From a virus (taxonomy: Duplodnaviria > Heunggongvirae > Uroviricota > Caudoviricetes), in the IMG/VR virus record IMGVR_UViG_2703718788_000009: DNA of 13,879 bases; one strand, written 5' to 3'. The position numbers and the translations under genes were made by a program. Positions 2,940 through 12,987 of the stretch are shown here, piece by piece. Every line of letters starts with the position of its first letter. The first letter of the stretch is position 1. Below the pieces are notes generated by a model. It was not told the origin of the DNA and searched no databases. It saw only the letters and a program-made list of their open reading frames with translations.

Positions 2940-3392
2940 TCAGCCTCTCCCAACATTTGACCAGTATTTGATTGCACCGATCAAATCATCATAGTGGCGC
3001 ATTGCATCATTGAAGCCTTTATAGCTTGCCCATTGTGGTGAAACTTTGTTATTGCTGAATTGCCCACTAATCAGGATAGTCTCCAAAATGTCGGCGTATC
3101 GCTTGCCAATTCGCTTTCTGACGGCCTCAGAGCTCCCACCCTTTACGATTGCATTAATCAGGGCTTTTGTGTGTCTCAGGCTCTCATAGAGCATTGCAGC
3201 GTGGGCAGATTCCATAAAGGAGCGCTTAGGCAGATCACCCCACCCCTCAGAATGGATAGCCGCCAGTGTGGCGTAATTCAGGCCGCTATAGTGTTTCCCG
3301 TCATCCCAGCCAACCGCTACACCTTCCATCTGTGAGAGCTCTTTATGCAGCTTATCCATCATGCGCTTGTCTATGGTGCAACGGACTTTCAT
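2940..3392 (-). CDS. hypothetical protein, possibly virion morphogenesis or head-tail joining
   Basis: 150-aa ORF whose ATG overlaps the upstream gene's stop in an ATGA arrangement (translational coupling). It is the last gene of the minus-strand structural operon. The functional guess rests on context only. Confidence 0.5.
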   Translation of the reverse strand: MKVRCTIDKRMMDKLHKELSQMEGVAVGWDDGKHYSGLNYATLAAIHSEGWGDLPKRSFMESAHAAMLYESLRHTKALINAIVKGGSSEAVRKRIGKRYADILETILISGQFSNNKVSPQWASYKGFNDAMRHYDDLIGAIKYWSNVGRG

Positions 3393-4168
3393 TTTGTAGC
3401 ATCCTTGGCAAACTTGGCCTGCCTTTGCTGTTTCCAGGCGCTATCAGCTGCGTCATAGTTGCCGCCGTTTTCCTCTAACAACGTGTTAAAATCTTTAGTC
3501 TTAGCCGATGGGGTGTTGGTTGAGTTCCCTACGTTGCTATTCTTCTCAGCACTGTTAACAGCACCCTTTTGCTGTGTTTTGTTCACCTTCTTGCTGTTAG
3601 TGAAGACTCCGGCATTTTCGACCATCTTCACCTTGAAGGTGCGGAATTCTTCAAAGGTGCAATCAATAGTGATGCAGTCACCAGAGGAAGAGCTACGCTT
3701 AACTTCACATTTCGTCATGATGAAGTTCTCAAGGAGTCCGGCATCTTCACTTACCAGGCTAACAAGCTGGCGCTTGTCTCTCATTTCCATAAGTGCCTGA
3801 ACAGCGGCGGCAGGGCGCATAGATTCACGGGGATTATCTGGATCAGTGTTCCGGTCAATGTAGTTCTCTTTCCGGATGATATGAGGAGAAGAGGTAACAA
3901 TACCCGTAAAGCTGACAGATTTATCTTTAATGACGGCATGGTCTGACATGGTGGTGCCATCCTCGACCGCATAGCTCGATTTCTCAACAGGGAACGAATA
4001 GCTGACATCAGAGATAGAGTCAAAGAAGATAGCCACGTTATCGGTATAGTTGAAGCCATCCATTATATTTTTGTTTTGTGAATATCCCCCACACATAACA
4101 GTGAATGCAGGAGATCTCGATTCAGCTTGTTTTGCAGCTGTCAGAGCATCACTAGCCATATTAAACAT
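3389..4168 (-). CDS. hypothetical protein, possibly a virion structural component
   Basis: 259-aa ORF. A GGAGG sits 1 nt before the first ATG and about 10 nt before the second ATG (4159), so the true start is probably 4159 (MASDALT...). Ser/Thr/Asn-rich, with a Lys/Asn-rich low-complexity C-terminus. Confidence 0.55.
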   Translation of the reverse strand: MFNMASDALTAAKQAESRSPAFTVMCGGYSQNKNIMDGFNYTDNVAIFFDSISDVSYSFPVEKSSYAVEDGTTMSDHAVIKDKSVSFTGIVTSSPHIIRKENYIDRNTDPDNPRESMRPAAAVQALMEMRDKRQLVSLVSEDAGLLENFIMTKCEVKRSSSSGDCITIDCTFEEFRTFKVKMVENAGVFTNSKKVNKTQQKGAVNSAEKNSNVGNSTNTPSAKTKDFNTLLEENGGNYDAADSAWKQQRQAKFAKDATK

Positions 4169-4548: not shown

Positions 4549-4595
4549 ATGAGTCCTTCCAGGACCTTAGCTAAAGCTAAGCCCTTTGGGTCTGT
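4549..4595. repeat. 47-bp repeat, copy B
   Basis: See copy A (57..103). Lies between the capsid-gene terminator and the next minus-strand gene. Confidence 0.85.
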
Positions 4596-4602
4596 GGATA
4601 AT

Positions 4603-4679: not shown

Positions 4680-5729
4680 TTATTTAGCCTTGGCTTTTGC
4701 CAGAGCAGCGGCGGCGGCGTTTTTAACACTCACTTTAACCACAACTTCGGGCATCATGTTCATGAAAGCATAAGAGGATTCAACGAAGATTTCTCGTTTG
4801 GCTCTGGACTCTTCCATATACATGAAAGCTTCACGTGCAGCGCCGTTTGCAAGCTTCAGGTTGCGAGCGCAAGGGCCGAAAAATTGAGTATAAACGCCCA
4901 CCATATCGCCTAACGCATGCGGCTGGAACTGTGGGACCAGATAAGCAGTATTCTCTGGCAGACTATCCATTTGCACCACACGCAGAGCTAAGCCTGGAAT
5001 GCGGAAAGTCGGGAAGCCCGGCAGAATATCCTCAGGGAACATCAGACCTTTATCAGTGATATTCTGATTGCCGAACAACAGCACTTTTCGCAACAGTTCA
5101 TCAGTCTGAATTGCAGCAAAGAGCTCAGCACGGCAGAACAGGGTGAAACCACGCAGAGCGCGAACGACACCACGCTGTTTAACCTTGCTCAGCGCAACCA
5201 GGTCCTGCAGCTGTTTAAGGATATCTTTAGCTAAATCCACTTCTGAGGTGGTTTGCTGTGCGCCCAGCAGTTCGCACACATTCAGTTCTTTACCCTTGGT
5301 GAGGATAATTTTGTTCTCAAAGAGAGCAAGCTGGCGTGCTTCTTCATGGGTCTGGCGTAAGCCTTCACCAAGCTGAATAACACGACGAGCGGTTACAGAC
5401 TCTAAATTCTCTTCGGAATCTTTGCCCGGAACACGGATACCCTGCCAGTCAGAAGGATAAATAGCACTTGATGCGGCAGTGAATGCCATATCACCCGTGC
5501 CCGTTTCACGCTCATCTGCGGTAATGGTAGCCATCTGTTCACCGTAGCGCGGATACTGACCGAAAGCGGTTTGTTTCACCTGGCGAACTTTGTCATATTC
5601 AAATTTAAAGGTATTGCACAGAGCAGTAGTGTTGAAGATATCCATTGCTGAAATAATCTGGTTATCCAGCGGGATGTCTTTAATCAAGCCACACAGATCG
5701 CGGACTTCGAATTCTTTTTTCATCTCCAA
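4680..5729 (-). CDS. major capsid protein (lambda gpE-like)
   Basis: The likely start is the ATG at 5723 with AAGGAGG 6 nt upstream; the track start at 5729 is TTG. The segment SLPENTAYLV and the C-terminal 'REIFVESSYAFMNMMPEVVVKVSV' resemble lambda gpE 'FLPDNTMVLG' and 'REFTMIQSAPLMLLADPDEFVSV', recalled from memory. About 347 aa, preceded by a small beta-rich protein. Confidence 0.7.
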   Translation of the reverse strand: MEMKKEFEVRDLCGLIKDIPLDNQIISAMDIFNTTALCNTFKFEYDKVRQVKQTAFGQYPRYGEQMATITADERETGTGDMAFTAASSAIYPSDWQGIRVPGKDSEENLESVTARRVIQLGEGLRQTHEEARQLALFENKIILTKGKELNVCELLGAQQTTSEVDLAKDILKQLQDLVALSKVKQRGVVRALRGFTLFCRAELFAAIQTDELLRKVLLFGNQNITDKGLMFPEDILPGFPTFRIPGLALRVVQMDSLPENTAYLVPQFQPHALGDMVGVYTQFFGPCARNLKLANGAAREAFMYMEESRAKREIFVESSYAFMNMMPEVVVKVSVKNAAAAALAKAKAK

Positions 5730-6225: not shown

Positions 6226-6548
6226 TCCACATGGGGAAACCGACAACAGTCGGATGATAGTTCACAGTATGGGTTACGGTTACTAGAGAGCACTATCACG
6301 AAAGGCACTCCCCCGAATCAGTTCAGGCTGCGGTCACATCAGCGGGGAAATACCTTTCGGGATAGCTACCCACACAGAAAACCCGCAAAAGAAAACTGTG
6401 TGGATAACTAGCCCAATAGGAGAATTAATCGACCACTCAACGATGATCAGGGTAGTGTTATTTATAAGGCGGCACCGCTACCTGGTCGCCTTTACTTTGG
6501 AGGAAAATACGGCAAATCACTTTCACCATTGATTTACGGTATATGTAT

Positions 6549-7157: not shown

Positions 7158-7418
7158 ATGACGGGGGCTAAAGATATCAGGAGATTGAGGGAAGAGCTGA
7201 TAGCTGAAATTAAAGCTAAGGCAAAGCAAATGGAGATAGCCGCACAAATGGATGTAGCGGAACAGATGTACAAGATGGTTGAAGAGGGAACACCACGGCA
7301 GGTTATAGCAAAAACATTTGGTGTGGGGATCGCCACCGTGCACAGAAGGCTGAAAGCCTATGCCGACTACCACAATATCGAGAGAAAGGAGGATGGGAGA
7401 TTTAAGAAGAATAAATAG
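7158..7418 (+). CDS. small DNA-binding protein with a helix-turn-helix motif
   Basis: 86-aa ORF with SD 'gagagg'. The motif TPRQVIAKTFGVGIATVHRRLK looks like an HTH of the resolvase or IS3 OrfA type; the N-terminus looks coiled-coil. Confidence 0.6.
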   Translation: MTGAKDIRRLREELIAEIKAKAKQMEIAAQMDVAEQMYKMVEEGTPRQVIAKTFGVGIATVHRRLKAYADYHNIERKEDGRFKKNK

Positions 7419-7475: not shown

Positions 7476-8162
7476 ATGTTTAAAGGTCTTGTTGTTACGC
7501 TATTGGCTTGCATTGTATTTGGTCCATGGGTGTTAGTAATTGCTTTACCTATATTGCTGATCATGAGCTTAGGGAATGATATTAAAAAGCTGCAAAAGCT
7601 GCATGCACAATATAAGGAGAATCCCGGCGCGTTCATGGTAAGTCTGGTTATAGTCGCGGGGCTTATTGGATGGGTGTATTTCTCCCTCCCCACAGGAAAT
7701 ACAACTGCAAATGTAGAAGAGGCCGCAGTGGTAGAGGAAAAAGCCAACAAAGGATTCAGATTTATTGTTGGTGTGGATAGCCCAGTATATGGCCCTGAAG
7801 CTGTGGATCCTGCAATGGTGCATGCCTGGTTATGGAACAGAACGGAGAAAGGTAGCTGCAATCAACTAAAAGCGAGCGCCAACATAGAAGAGGAAGGAGA
7901 TACATTTTTCGCATGGTGTAAAGATATCAAAGGCAATGATAGGTGGTTTACCATTACCAATATTGTAGGTGTTTCCCGTTCACTAATGAATCACCCTGAG
8001 GCTAAGAATCCGCTAACAGGTGTCCGATTAAAAGATGGCCCAATATGGATCGATTTATACGGAACACAAATCACTGAGGGCGTGAACAGCGATATCCAGG
8101 ATAAGCTGAAAGACATAAATAATCAGTATGGTGCGATTGTTGAAACCTCTCCTATGAAATAA
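7476..8162 (+). CDS. membrane protein with two N-terminal transmembrane helices and a roughly 150-aa C-terminal domain, possibly superinfection exclusion
   Basis: 228-aa ORF with SD 'agagg'. Hydrophobic segments at about residues 5..30 and 53..70, separated by a Lys-rich loop. Function is a hypothesis. Confidence 0.6.
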   Translation: MFKGLVVTLLACIVFGPWVLVIALPILLIMSLGNDIKKLQKLHAQYKENPGAFMVSLVIVAGLIGWVYFSLPTGNTTANVEEAAVVEEKANKGFRFIVGVDSPVYGPEAVDPAMVHAWLWNRTEKGSCNQLKASANIEEEGDTFFAWCKDIKGNDRWFTITNIVGVSRSLMNHPEAKNPLTGVRLKDGPIWIDLYGTQITEGVNSDIQDKLKDINNQYGAIVETSPMK

Positions 8163-9368: not shown

Positions 9369-9404
9369 TCAACATAAGTGTTGATAAAATCAAGGGGTGT
9401 TGAT
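9369..9404. promoter_or_regulatory. pair of adjacent inverted repeats (TCAACA-N4-TGTTGA and ATCAA-N6-TTGAT); candidate operator
   Basis: Both have perfect arms; they sit just upstream of the iteron cluster. Confidence 0.4.
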
Positions 9405-9426
9405 CTGCATATTTCCCACACATGAG

Positions 9427-9456
9427 AGGAAATCAGAGCAAAGAGAGAGGAGAGAG
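9427..9456. repeat. polypurine (GA-rich) tract
   Basis: A 30-nt run of almost only A and G on the plus strand. Confidence 0.5.
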
Positions 9457-9465
9457 GTTTGTTAG

Positions 9466-9520
9466 TCAAAATCAAGTCACATTAGAGTCAAATCAAGTCA
9501 AATCAGATGCAATCAATCCC
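9466..9520. repeat. cluster of 'aatcaagtca'-type direct repeats
   Basis: gtcaaaatcaagtca, gtcaaatcaagtca, aatcagatgca, aatcaatccc in tandem. Confidence 0.6.
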
Positions 9521-9521
9521 C

Positions 9522-9586
9522 CACCTGTTGGGATTTCCCACATGTTCAACCATACACAGGAGCTAACCTGTTGGGATTTCCTACAC
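9522..9586. repeat. two copies of 'acctgttgggatttccYaca', 45 bp apart
   Basis: 9522..9541 and 9567..9586 are near-identical. Confidence 0.7.
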
Positions 9587-9639
9587 CTCTTGCACATACC
9601 CCGGAAGATTTTTCCGGTGTGCCATCTTTGCAGGCTCCA

Positions 9640-9807
9640 ACCTGTGAAGAATTTTCACACCTGTAAATCCATACAGCACGGTAAAAACTACCGCACCACC
9701 TGTCAAAATATTTTACTACCCCACCAATAATACGGCCCATACCTGTAAAATATTTTTACTACTACCTGTCAAAATCTTTTACTACTACCTGTAAAAATAT
9801 TTGACAC
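9640..9807. repeat. iteron array with ACCTGT core (part of the candidate replication origin)
   Basis: ACCTGT occurs at 9640, 9659, 9698, 9741, 9764 and 9787, plus 9523 and 9566 in the preceding repeat. The last four sit in units of about 23 bp, 'acctgt(c)aaaatattttactac', three of them directly tandem. Confidence 0.7.
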
Positions 9808-9839
9808 TAATAGATAAAGTAACAGACCACACAATAGAT

Positions 9840-9865
9840 CCCCCCCTAACCCCCCCCCCAGGGGG
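9840..9865. repeat. homopolymer tracts C7-TAA-C10-A-G5, bracketed by GATC sites
   Basis: Read directly: gatcccccccctaacccccccccaggggg, with GATC at 9837..9840 and 9876..9879. Confidence 0.8.
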
Positions 9866-9902
9866 AATGGGGAGGGATCAGAGAGTGGGGAAGGTTTATC
9901 AA

Positions 9903-10027
9903 TATATCAAATTGATATACTTAGCTAGATGTATCAATTAATACACTTAAAGGTGAGCAATGCTTAGCTAGATGTATCAATCCGATACACTTAGAATATT
10001 CTAGATGTATCAATTAATACACTTAAA
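9903..10027. repeat. 17-bp perfect palindrome followed by three direct repeats of about 30 bp
   Basis: Palindrome tatatcaa-a-ttgatata at 9903..9919; repeats 'ctagatgtatcaat..atacactta' at 9920..9951, 9963..9994 and 9999..10027. Confidence 0.75.
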
Positions 10028-10906
10028 TCACGTAACTTATTGTATTTATTAAGAAAAGTCATCTACCTATATATACTACTGATTCGCCTCCGCTCATCAT
10101 TAGTATGGTGTAACTGATTCATGCTTCGCTTACGCTCACATTCATCTACTTACACCCCCTTATCTGAATTGAACATTCCCGTCCAATCCAGCTAAGAGAA
10201 TTGATTGAACATTACCTAACATCCGTTAGCTAACATTCTAATCAATTAACTACTTAAACACTTCCACACCTTCCGGTGGTGCCAAGTAACCTGGCATGGT
10301 GGGAAAAGATTCTGCCGTTTTAGGTAGAATTGATTTCCCACAAATAGTAAGTGTCGGCCCTTCAATGTCACTCTCCTATGAGGGGAGAGATGACGGGCCT
10401 CCTGTGTGGGTGAGTATCGGAGCAGTCTGTGAAGTATGAGCAGGCTGTGAGATACGCTACTGTATATCTGCGTAGAACAGCCTCCGCTGTTTACGCTCTT
10501 TGTGTGGTCCGGCGAATGCGTCAGCATGAGGCCCACATGTGGACCGCTGCCGAAAGCTTGCCAGCGCCGGAAGGAGGCAGCAAAGAGTCTCCCGCGCTCA
10601 TGTGTGGGCGTATACGTAAGATATACATTCATAAATCCAATCCTAGGCCCCTAAATGGCCTTCTGGCTGCATTAACCTGTGTGAGTAGTGCAATTGCATT
10701 ACCTGATGCTTAAATCGCGTTGTAGGGCCTCTCATAGAGAATTTAACTATCAAGATAAAAATTGCAGATCGGTCTATTGACAATCTTATTGCATAAATGC
10801 TATAAGTTATTCTGGTTTTGACACGGTAGGGGCCATTAATAATGCTTACCCCCTTTGCTGTGGACTTGCTTGCACCTATAGCACACCTAAATGATAATAA
10901 TTCTCA

Positions 10907-10935
10907 TTGACAATTGGTTGACAATATGATAAGAT
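10907..10935 (+). promoter_or_regulatory. candidate sigma70 promoter (TTGACA-N17-TAAGAT) upstream of a small ORF
   Basis: Consensus -35 at 10907..10912, a 4-of-6 -10 at 10930..10935, and a second overlapping TTGACA at 10918. Confidence 0.35.
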
Positions 10936-10970
10936 TATAAATAGGGGGAGAAACAGATCCGGAGGTCAAT

Positions 10971-11120
10971 GTGGAAATTACTGATGCAATAGCGATCATC
11001 AACCTGGCTGTACTGTGGTGCGGTGTTGCCTACATAGCCGGAGTAACTGCAATAGACAATCTTGAAGAAAAAATGATAGATAAATACAAAAAGATTGTTG
11101 ACAATTTGACGAATGTTTGA
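10971..11120 (+). CDS. small membrane protein (49 aa, GTG start), possibly holin-like or toxin-like
   Basis: GGAGG 5 nt upstream of the GTG; VEITDAIAIINLAVLWCGVAYIAGVTAIDNLEEKMIDKYKKIVDNLTNV has one transmembrane-like helix and a charged C-terminal tail. Absent from the ORF track. Confidence 0.3.
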   Translation: MEITDAIAIINLAVLWCGVAYIAGVTAIDNLEEKMIDKYKKIVDNLTNV

Positions 11121-11126
11121 TAAAAT
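11098..11126 (+). promoter_or_regulatory. strong sigma70 promoter (TTGACA-N17-TAAAAT) for the leader and Rep operon
   Basis: -35 at 11098..11103, a 17-nt spacer, -10 at 11121..11126. Confidence 0.6.
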
Positions 11127-11176
11127 ATAAAGCATAGGGTAATTCTCAGCATGTGAATTTTCCTTAAACAGACTAG

Positions 11177-11206
11177 CGGGGCTTGTCTTGAGTCCCGTTT
11201 CTTTTT
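11177..11206 (+). terminator. intrinsic terminator or attenuator in the leader between the promoter and the first operon gene
   Basis: Stem cggggc / gtcccg (one G-U pair) with a 9-nt loop, followed by 'tttcttttt'. It lies about 45 nt after the predicted start and 44 nt before the ATG at 11250. Confidence 0.55.
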
Positions 11207-11249
11207 AAACCTACATCGCACAGGCGATGAGCTGACAGGAGATTGAATC

Positions 11250-11459
11250 ATGGCTAAAACCGGACCGATAAGCCAGCTGGTAAACTGGACTACTGACGAA
11301 ATCGTCGAGAACGTGCTTAAAGGTAACTTTCGCAAAACTTCCGTTTATGCATTTATTCGAAAACACAAAGGAGAATATCCACACATTGAAGCGGCAATAG
11401 AAAAATTAAACTTTATTAAACTTGAGCGCCAGCTTGAAAGATATAAACACCTACTTTAA
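11250..11459 (+). CDS. hypothetical small basic protein, possibly a regulator; first gene of the Rep operon
   Basis: 69-aa ORF with SD 'aggag' 8 nt upstream. Confidence 0.55.
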   Translation: MAKTGPISQLVNWTTDEIVENVLKGNFRKTSVYAFIRKHKGEYPHIEAAIEKLNFIKLERQLERYKHLL

Positions 11460-11495: not shown

Positions 11496-12410
11496 ATGAA
11501 TATTGAGTCTGTTTTTAATATAACTTTAAATGATGATCCTAGTATCCTTTTGCTGCCAATGCTCATAAATAAATCTGGACTATTAAAAAGAGGCGACGCA
11601 AGGGATATCTATATTTACATGTGGAATACTTACTATCTCCACGCTAAAAAAGAGGCCGCCAAGGTGTTCAGCAAGAAGACTAAAGGAAGAAGCCTCAGCC
11701 AGGATATGAAAAACTCCATCAGAAAAGAGTGTTTTGCTATTAAAGATAAAGATTCCTGTGTGGAGATCTCTTATAAGGATATAGAGGAAAGAATTGGAAT
11801 ACTGCGACCAAATGCAGTAAGGGCAATTAAAAAGCTGGAATCTGAAGGAATTATCACCTGCCTTAAAAAAGGCAATAAGCATAACCCTTATGCATCATGG
11901 CAAATTAATGTCGGAATCTTTGAAATGATGGAAAGAGTAGGGATTGAAAACCTCATTGGGTGGGATCTCTTAAAACCATATTGGAAGAAAGAACAGGAAG
12001 CAGCCGGAAGAGGGGAGGGGGCCAAAGCTCCACAGGAAGCTCCAAAACAAGCCGCACAGCAGCCTGAAGACACACCCGAAGGGGTGACCGTAGGTCACCT
12101 GGCTAAGCCAGCGAAAGAGTCCAAAGTGGTGCAATTCCCTTCTGTGAAAGATAAAGACGTTAGCGTAGAGCACAACTCTTATTCCGAAAGTGTGACAACG
12201 TCACCTGTTAAGGCAAACAAGAAGGAGGCATCTAAAGTGATAGATATTTCTTCTTTTATGGCAGATGAAGATGATACGCAAGATGTGTGGTATACACCTT
12301 CAGAAAATGATTATAGTGGTAGTGGTGGTTATGATCCTTATGGCTATGATGAGGATGAATACAACCCATTTGAAGATGAATATACAAATGATTCCGCTAT
12401 CCCTTATTAA
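11496..12410 (+). CDS. putative replication initiator (winged-helix, lambda-O/RepA-like N-terminal domain) with a long disordered acidic C-terminal tail
   Basis: 304-aa ORF with SD 'agagg'. The segment 'VEISYKDIEERIGILRPNAVRAIKKLESEGIITC' resembles the winged-helix DNA-binding domain of lambda O 'RITDSQLSEITKLPVKRCNEAKLELVRMNII', recalled from memory. The C-terminal 140 aa are low-complexity and end in ...EDEYTNDSAIPY. Confidence 0.55.
   Translation: MNIESVFNITLNDDPSILLLPMLINKSGLLKRGDARDIYIYMWNTYYLHAKKEAAKVFSKKTKGRSLSQDMKNSIRKECFAIKDKDSCVEISYKDIEERIGILRPNAVRAIKKLESEGIITCLKKGNKHNPYASWQINVGIFEMMERVGIENLIGWDLLKPYWKKEQEAAGRGEGAKAPQEAPKQAAQQPEDTPEGVTVGHLAKPAKESKVVQFPSVKDKDVSVEHNSYSESVTTSPVKANKKEASKVIDISSFMADEDDTQDVWYTPSENDYSGSGGYDPYGYDEDEYNPFEDEYTNDSAIPY
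12072..12120. repeat. 50-bp repeat, copy B, embedded in the Rep-like coding sequence
   Basis: Matches 6842..6890; encodes ...TPEGVTVGHLAKPAKE... in the disordered tail. Confidence 0.8.
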
Positions 12411-12498
12411 TACCCCCAAATAAACTAAATAAACTAAACATAGAATTACTAGAACTAGATTGATTGCCCTGATCTTTTAAACGTTCGGAGAATTAATC

Positions 12499-12987
12499 AT
12501 GTTCAAATCTGATCTTTCTGATTCCCAATTTGAAAAACTGGTAGCACTGCAGAAATATCTCCCCAGTGATGATCAACCAACACGACAGGCTAAACACTTA
12601 TTAGTCGAGGGCTTTACCCCTGAATTCGTGGCGGAATACACAGGCGTTAAACTTGAGAAAGTCCAAAAACTATATAATGAGTCCTGGAATCCACGGTGTC
12701 GAGTTCCCCTCAGTGTCTACAACGAAATAGACAGAGATAGAAATGTCTTCGAAGATCGCCGCCGCAAATCTCTTTTAATGTGGAATTGTGGGATGAATAT
12801 TGAAGAGATAGCAAAAGAATTAAAAGTAACCTGCTTTCATATCTGGGGCTTGTTGAGTGAAATCCTGCCACGTAAGGAGCTTAATCAACGTTTGCCTAAG
12901 CCCGGCAGTCGTGCTTATCGCGAATTTATATTCATCTACCGCCGCCATAGCAATAAAGTCCGGAAAGCAATGGCCCAGAAAGCCTAA
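12499..12987 (+). CDS. DNA-binding protein with two predicted helix-turn-helix motifs (regulator or small-terminase-like; unresolved)
   Basis: 162-aa ORF with SD 'ggag'. HTH-like segments FTPEFVAEYTGVKLEKVQKL and MNIEEIAKELKVTCFHIWGLL; basic C-terminus. Confidence 0.55.
   Translation: MFKSDLSDSQFEKLVALQKYLPSDDQPTRQAKHLLVEGFTPEFVAEYTGVKLEKVQKLYNESWNPRCRVPLSVYNEIDRDRNVFEDRRRKSLLMWNCGMNIEEIAKELKVTCFHIWGLLSEILPRKELNQRLPKPGSRAYREFIFIYRRHSNKVRKAMAQKA

Follow-up and report, generated by a model that had tools for sequence, protein, structure and literature searches.

An initiator-like protein of a phage-like Escherichia coli plasmid carries a portable acidic tail with partial likeness to the SSB tip

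The known routes by which a replication origin is handed over to the helicase run through DnaA, through a dedicated loader (λ P or a DnaC-like protein) or through a folded recruitment domain, and the Rep proteins of iteron plasmids recruit host factors via short motifs, for example the clamp-binding motif of RK2 TrfA. In SSB, which binds single-stranded DNA (ssDNA), residues P176 and F177 and the free carboxylate of the tip occupy a hydrophobic pocket with a basic rim on chi, ExoI and RecQ, and one Gly added after F177 abolishes chi binding (PMC3045619). In phage T7, the C-terminal DTDF peptide of gp4 is present in the replisome structure 6P7E, which was the template from which the gp2.5 tail was positioned on gp5, the T7 polymerase (PMC12339929). 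Here we analyze the IMG/VR record IMGVR_UViG_2703718788_000009, a stretch of 13,879 nucleotides (“the window”) that represents an entire circular element (~13.9 kb), and in particular its gene at 11496..12410 (+ strand), taken from the open reading frame (ORF) list, whose 304-aa initiator-like product combines a winged helix, a linker and an acidic module. Acidic C-terminal docking tails are already known; the variant described here is borne by an orphan initiator from an apparently undescribed element family.

Our working interpretation, which we hold tentatively and with somewhat less than even confidence, is that, in a family of ~13.7-kb phage-like E. coli plasmids, the 304-aa protein serves one replicon variant as its origin-binding initiator, and that its tail docks on a conserved replication protein. 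The winged-helix domain would bind three iterons (9925-10025) beside an AT-rich stretch, and the flexible linker would bear an acidic/aromatic module of ~56 residues that was formerly a separate gene. Iteron-bound initiators would then display several flexible tails, whose ...NDS[A/D]IPY-COOH ends would dock by placing the terminal aromatic residue and the free carboxylate in a basic-rimmed hydrophobic pocket, as the tails of SSB, T7 gp2.5 and gp4 do, and the docked partner would be concentrated at the AT-rich region of the origin. The domain architecture, the homology with O-like initiators, the co-variation of protein and iterons, the selection acting on the tip and the occurrence of the module in fused and free states are shown by the results below; that the tail docks on a protein, and on which one, we infer.

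The gene has an ATG start with AAGAGG 8 nt upstream, and its product ends in ...YDPYGYDEDEYNPFEDEYTNDSAIPY followed by the stop codon. HTH (helix-turn-helix) matches and hhalign delimit an N-terminal DNA-binding domain of residues 1-165 (11496..11990, +), while composition, indels and alignment to the linkers of Rep-B, a different initiator allele of sister elements, mark residues 166-248 as a linker (11991..12239, +). Residues 249-304 (IDISSFMADEDD...NDSAIPY; 12240..12407, +) form the acidic/aromatic module by their composition and by alignment to free peptides of sister elements. Within the module, conservation and codon analysis single out the last 26 residues, YDPYGYDEDEY[NS]PFEDEY[TI]NDSAIPY (12330..12407, +), as the most conserved, and these include the tip DSAIPY (12390-12407, +; tip peptide EDEYTNDSAIPY). 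The original prediction described the C-terminal 140 aa as low-complexity and acidic/aromatic, ending in IPY. The IPY ending and the acidity are indeed found in residues 251-304, which contain 10 Asp, 6 Glu, no Lys or Arg (net charge -16) and 11 Tyr/Phe/Trp and end in NDSAIPY; the description does not extend to residues 166-250, a near-neutral linker (net -2) enriched in Pro, Glu, Lys, Gln and Ala. Residues 1-165 have a charge of +9.

The module is not confined to this gene. Every one of the 20 related elements that we examined has the coding sequence of a Tyr-terminated acidic peptide 84-162 nt upstream of a conserved 162-aa gene (12499..12987, + in the window), which serves as a positional anchor; the peptide is fused to the winged-helix protein in seven elements including the window (ending ...EDEY[TI]NDSAIPY) and is a free microprotein of 48-62 aa in the other 13. 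The free proteins are of 48 aa (eight elements, ending ...EENDSDIPY), 62 aa (one element, ...TERDSAIPY) and 52-54 aa (four elements, ...FDDD(D)Y(Y)DEDY), so 9/13 end in DS[A/D]IPY and 4/13 in DEDY. Over both forms, Ile-Pro precedes the terminal aromatic residue in 16/20 elements and is absent in the four with ...YYDEDY; the stop codon directly follows Tyr304, as it does the terminal Tyr in each of the 16 IPY-tipped elements. The string DS[A/D]IPY-stop terminates three otherwise unrelated reading frames in these sister elements. The existence of a separate 48-62-aa microprotein in most of them was absent from the original prediction, and it bears on that prediction's two suggested roles for the tail, to recruit replication components or to compete with SSB.

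Residues 249-304 correspond to an entire free microprotein: the free 48-, 62- and 54-aa peptides share with them the terminal Tyr and, as start motif, [IL]D[IL][ST]x-aromatic (with M in the 54-aa form). Between the fused and 48-aa forms, homology at the DNA level covers the final eight codons and the spacer downstream, and the parts upstream are unrelated. In the window, a perfect Shine-Dalgarno sequence AAGGAGG (12222-12228) stands 8 nt from an in-frame GTG (12237; whole signal 12222..12239, +), exactly where a free module would begin. This signal, either a vestige of fusion or an internal start, is weaker in L001 and L014 and absent in L011 and L015. Rep-B proteins have a folded C-terminal domain of ~120 aa (pLDDT 75-93) that is missing from the window protein. 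We read the 304-aa gene as the product of a fusion between an initiator (winged helix plus linker) and the microprotein gene next to it, accompanied by loss of the C-terminal domain of the Rep-B type; that two adjacent genes became fused suggests that module and initiator act together. The linker is a joint for recombination, and the Rep-B genes (L002-L020, alignment A3) are mosaics of at least four winged-helix types and three C-terminal-domain types whose joint is the linker motif QEAPKQATQQ. That the tail is a portable module is the new result of this comparison of fused and free forms. Homologue searches with the 48-aa microprotein found this family only, and searches of the Protein Data Bank (PDB) by sequence with the tail and the microprotein gave nothing meaningful. 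We also observed that the Rep-B C-terminal-domain type ending ...MVLLDK is paired with a DEDY peptide in 4/4 cases and the other two types with IPY peptides in 9/9.

The separate gene in 13/20 elements, the strong Shine-Dalgarno sequence and GTG at the start of the module in the window (from which a free form may still be made) and the rampant linker recombination in this gene family would all fit a rival account, in which the free microprotein is a diffusible decoy that blocks a host protein (a nuclease or helicase that binds the SSB tip, such as ExoI, RecJ or RecQ, or a defence protein) and the fusion is a recombination accident after which the decoy is still active. We consider this quite unlikely. 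The fused lineage has diversified over a long time (44 clusters, 71-95% identity) and has kept the frame and the tip, while the internal Shine-Dalgarno sequence and GTG are missing in part of it. Moreover, the module always lies in the replication operon beside the initiator, and short peptides bind SSB partners with micromolar affinity only.

Conservation within the fused lineage argues for a tail that is functional and under selection. The 304-aa family has 44 full-length homologues (clusters), all on E. coli contigs of 9-15 kb (about 13.7 kb). An alignment of 23 full-length homologues (71-95% identity) shows two variable positions only in the last 26 residues (N/S and T/I) and indels of 4, 8 and 17 residues in the linker. 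In a codon analysis of seven genes, the ratio of non-synonymous to synonymous polymorphism (pN/pS) is 0.22 in the DNA-binding domain, 0.38 in the linker, 1.84 in the proximal acidic part and 0.11 (pS 0.16) in the last 26 codons, the lowest of the gene's regions; the last of these values comes from four synonymous and two non-synonymous variable sites (p ~0.01 against neutrality, a binomial estimate). An alternative-frame ORF at 12265-12423 (+) was rejected as the reason for the conservation of the tail, since relatives have it in truncated or altered form and purifying selection acts on the main frame. We likewise rejected the argument that the 48-aa peptide, invariant next to initiators that have diverged, proves selection; with DNA that is nearly identical (pS 0.029), this invariance says little about selection.

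The same regional pattern bears on a second rival, that the acidic tail is an autoregulatory DNA mimic which folds onto the winged-helix domain (or acts on it in trans when free), competes with DNA and so sets copy number or prevents non-specific binding, in the way that the SSB, T7 gp2.5 and Hfq tails act on the cores of their own proteins. The charges of the two regions are complementary (+9 for residues 1-165 and -16 for residues 251-304), and because the target would be generically electrostatic, one peptide could serve very different initiators. Self-occluding acidic tails are also established, for Hfq, whose tail occludes its own nucleic-acid site (PMC5606850). The tail of T7 gp2.5 likewise blocks the nucleic-acid site of that protein. 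However, electrostatics alone would not need an invariant ...NDSAIPY at the exact C-terminus, and it is the proximal acidic part, with most of the charge, that evolves fastest (pN/pS 1.84, against 0.11 for the tip); on balance we think a DNA mimic unlikely.

That the protein is Rep-like, as originally predicted, is borne out by comparisons of its N-terminal part, which support an O-like origin-binding protein with a predicted DNA-binding function. Residues ~74-131 form a winged helix-turn-helix (wHTH) core, with which PDB wHTH alignments agree. All PHROG matches of the protein are to “replication initiation O-like” families (PHROG 678, 391 and 428), although weak (E 4e-5 to 1.5e-3). By hhalign, residues 79-223 match the winged helix plus linker of the HTH_36-type Rep-B (probability 98.1%, E 6.7e-14), and its linker has the motifs QEAPKQAxQQ and VVQ[FL]P in common with the linkers of Rep-B initiators. 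A direct Pfam match of the window protein to HTH_36 is below threshold; the threshold is reached by two of the three Rep-B members scanned, and Rep-B matches many “replication initiation” PHROGs. In fold searches, the Rep-B model resembles phage “replication initiator” proteins, the N-terminal domain of plasmid RepA and generic winged helices, and its C-terminal domain gave no match. Pfam and NCBIfam scans of the 304-aa protein showed one wHTH only and no Rep_3 or related signature, and an exhaustive HMMER search of 1.84 billion representative proteins with the N-terminal domain returned just two matches, both of this family.

Pfam matches to the HTHs of MarR and CodY are also below threshold, and the names given by NCBI to some 304-aa homologues are MarR or Lrp/AsnC regulators. 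Such likeness to the wHTH of generic regulators, together with a stand-alone 166-172-aa winged-helix protein beside a full Rep-B in some elements, could mean that the protein is a transcriptional repressor, not an initiator, with a tail that serves as a degradation or regulatory signal. This seems to us highly improbable, given that the profile homology extends into the initiator linker, that every PHROG match is to replication initiators, that the cognate repeats adjoin an AT-rich stretch in a segment which genetically replaces the Rep-B C-terminal domain, and that fused-type elements have no other initiator candidate. The stand-alone genes, which encode a version of the window protein's winged-helix domain and precede a complete Rep-B, are found in L005 (8001-8501), L017 (2132-2632), L019 (5383-5901) and L004 (127-645); they lack both the tail and the cognate iteron segment.

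The proposed origin lies upstream of the gene. Three iterons, CTAGATGTATCAAT(TA/CCG)ATACACTTA, recognized in the sequence as members of repeat families, occupy 9925-9949, 9968-9993 and 10001-10025 and are proposed as the binding sites of the 304-aa protein. Directly after them, in a segment found in fused-type elements only, comes an AT-rich stretch (10026..10085), a proposed DNA-unwinding element, and the GC content of 9751-10200 is 0.33-0.34. The segment of 600 bp (~9897-10497) that holds the iterons and the AT-rich stretch is present in 7/7 fused-gene elements versus 0/8 of the Rep-B type. Iterons beside an AT-rich stretch, co-varying with the protein, add to the Rep-like character noted above: across these seven elements, three recognition-helix variants pair with three iteron sequences, LRPN (the window) with the repeat CTAGATGTATCAATTAATACAC, LRPH (L012 and L013) with CTAGATGTACGTAATTGGTACAC and LQPNIARA (L001, L011, L014 and L015) with TATCAACATATCAATnTGATATAC, and sites of the LRPN type read GTATCAATTAATAC versus GTACGTAATTGGTAC for the LRPH type. 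Because the repeat sequence changes with the recognition helix, this is the best evidence that the 304-aa protein binds these repeats. The window also has a single iteron copy of the LQPNIARA-variant type (TATCAATATATCAAATTGATATACTTA) at 9897..9923. No DnaA box with one mismatch or fewer occurs in 9388-11374.

As for the initiator's own operon, a promoter-like site upstream of the 69-aa and 304-aa genes (11098..11126, +; TTGACA-17-TAAAAT with TG) scores 11/12 in a consensus scan and is a pattern match only. A 69-aa gene lies directly upstream of the 304-aa gene (11250..11459, +), is part of the same operon in all elements and has no family match in Pfam, PHROG or NCBIfam scans. The 162-aa protein encoded downstream of the module has 97-100% identity in relatives and a weak HTH_40 match only; it is a candidate for the partner of the acidic module. 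A terminator-like hairpin with a T run (11175-11208, +) stands between the promoter-like site and the first gene of the replication operon and may be an attenuator.

Family scans of the element's proteins recognized no helicase, loader or primase. Since the element has no replisome genes, the partner of the tail is probably a host factor. The leading candidates, by analogy with SSB, would be those proteins binding the SSB tip that are capable of starting a replisome (PriA, PriC, DnaG or chi), though we regard this assignment as doubtful. At its fullest, the proposal would be that an initiator built on the SSB plan plugs the origin into the host SSB interactome, recruits PriA/PriC (with DnaG and chi) and loads DnaB with neither DnaA boxes nor a dedicated loader, while sister elements deliver the tip as a 48-62-aa adaptor microprotein; this complete scheme we rate as unlikely.

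The other genes of the window bring in a further alternative. It encodes a tape-measure protein (309-2438, +), a tail-completion protein (2940-3392, -), a Dit-like protein (3389-4168, -) and a major capsid protein (4680-5729, -), but Pfam, PHROG and NCBIfam family scans recognized no terminase, portal or integrase among its genes, and perhaps it represents a plasmid-borne satellite of a phage or else a minimal phage-plasmid. If it is a satellite, the tail might dock on a replication or packaging protein of a helper phage, not on one of the host. Virion genes without recognizable terminase, portal or replisome genes would suit such a helper-directed tail, as would the T7 gp4/gp2.5 precedent and one homologue (P0101) annotated from a Caudoviricetes virome assembly. 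The element nevertheless persists as a plasmid in sequenced isolates with no identified helper, so its replication must work with host proteins alone, and no related phage was found in a phage collection (50,697 records), which had neither a DNA match to the element nor a match to its capsid. The tape-measure protein has just 24% identity to phages of ~131-139 kb (FV3-like), so this match points to no helper. A helper-directed tail is improbable in our judgment.

The window is matched by five E. coli “plasmids” of 13.2-13.7 kb and one 39.6-kb record. The latter, NZ_CP043822.1 (a plasmid record of 39,610 bp), contains the element three times over, whether as a trimer or concatemer of natural origin or through an artefact of assembly. 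Initiator clusters numbered more than 140, and the contigs that carry them are, without exception, 13.3-14.4 kb long and from E. coli, E. albertii or Shigella. The elements make up a populous family of 13-14-kb phage-like plasmids in these hosts that has apparently gone undescribed so far; no description of it was found in the literature searched. The element was also sought in IMG/VR and in species-representative genomes, with no match.

Several further features of the window stand apart from the initiator. DnaA-box-like 9-mers are enriched in it, with 15 at one mismatch or fewer versus ~4 expected, two of them perfect; they include 4593-4601 (-), 6399-6407 (-) and 13 more, and none is near the proposed origin. 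At 9469-9808, short palindromic units (ACC-N-xxxAAnnnTTxxx), several of which are spaced at 23 bp, form an array that is hypervariable between elements. It was rejected as the initiator's iterons, the identical array being present in L002 (Rep-B type) and L013 (fused type), and is probably bound by something other than the initiator. Between the two repeat arrays, at 9842-9877, is a C run followed by a G run (CCCCCCCTAACCCCCCCCCCAGGGGGAATGGGGAGGGA), kept in most of the relatives examined and absent in L011, L014 and L015. The segment 8163-11249 (about 3 kb) has no conserved ORF; an ORF at 10246-10632 (-) was rejected as a hidden replication gene, being broken in relatives and having no third-codon-position bias. 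The GC-rich 10100-10660 folds far better than column-shuffled alignments of seven elements (z -6 to -10, both strands), has no Rfam match and may be a structured RNA or DNA element. Finally, a cargo position at 7476-8162 (+) holds three unrelated alleles among the elements (173, 195 and 228-233 aa), all membrane-like or secreted-like, which may be a moron or exclusion gene, and upstream of it is a nearly invariant 86-aa HTH_7 protein (7158-7418).

A number of observations weigh against the proposal that the tail of an origin-bound initiator docks on a replication protein in the manner of SSB. The original prediction likened the tip to that of SSB, and its C-terminal position, the Ile-Pro-aromatic-COOH ending, the acidity and the linker do agree, but three details do not. 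The terminal residue is Tyr in 20/20 elements versus Phe (F177) in SSB; D-S-A (fused and 62-aa forms) or D-S-D (48-aa form) stands where SSB has the D172-D174 triplet, with further acidic residues upstream; and four elements end in ...YYDEDY without Ile-Pro, where either the partner differs or Ile-Pro is not essential. Recruitment of a partner to the origin by a free microprotein would require that it bind the initiator as well, and the constancy of the 48-aa gene, whose DNA is itself nearly identical (pS 0.029), counts for little as a sign of selection. The estimate of selection on the tip is based on seven genes and six variable sites, and the co-variation of iterons and protein may partly reflect linkage, the loci being 1.5 kb apart. 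The AlphaFold2 model of the 304-aa protein (24-sequence alignment) is uninformative, with pLDDT 35 throughout, folded domain included. With pLDDT at that level everywhere, disorder of the tail is inferred from composition; composition and indels of the linker are likewise compatible with disorder, between which and order the low-confidence model does not discriminate.

Should docking of the tail prove correct, a short, portable, SSB-like acidic peptide, naturally both fused and split, would replace a folded recruitment domain. The SSB-tip docking code could then be borrowed by proteins other than SSB, and a genetic system for studying this would be at hand in the form of a ~2.5-kb mini-replicon and the natural fused/split and IPY/DEDY variants. 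The complete scheme through PriA/PriC, if correct, would give replisomes at a plasmid or phage origin a way of assembling not described before, and the tail would be the first case in nature of an initiator that mimics the SSB tip; no precedent for such a mimic was found in the literature searched. If instead the tail is dispensable or purely autoregulatory, what the orphan initiator bears is an acidic tail of the ordinary kind.

Among the systems with which this locus can be compared, λ O and other HTH_36 initiators share an N-terminal winged helix, iterons that adjoin an AT-rich region and a flexible linker. They differ in that O-type proteins and Rep-B keep a folded C-terminal domain of ~120 aa, which in λ binds the P loader, where the window protein has its acidic module, and in that the element's proposed origin is 1.5 kb upstream of the gene and not within it. 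Like the Rep proteins of iteron plasmids, the 304-aa protein would be an iteron-bound initiator with a short linear motif for a component of the host replisome, but it lacks the Rep_3/RepA double winged-helix signature and a clamp-binding motif, and its proposed motif is a C-terminal acidic tip.

The tail partly resembles the peptide at SSB's C-terminus (SSB-Ct; E. coli ...MDFDDDIPF), in that both stand at the extreme C-terminus on a long linker attached to a DNA-binding core, are acidic, end in Ile-Pro-aromatic-COOH and have a tip much better conserved than the linker. The cores are different, a winged helix for double-stranded DNA with iterons in the element versus an OB fold on ssDNA in SSB, and the element's module is Tyr-rich and also exists as a free microprotein. 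With T7 gp2.5 and gp4, all four versions of the module share a strongly acidic tail and an aromatic residue at the very C-terminus, but the T7 tails end in Phe and have no sequence homology to that of the element. Tails of the T7 type dock on a basic patch of a cognate polymerase or helicase. T7 itself supplies the tail as well as the gp5 polymerase that is its partner, whereas the element has no genes for a polymerase, helicase or primase, so that its tail would find a partner in the host or a helper. The closest precedent is nonetheless T7 gp4, a replication protein other than SSB with an SSB-like tail that docks on a replisome partner, and a tail that, like the ...DEDY version in the element's relatives, needs no Ile-Pro.

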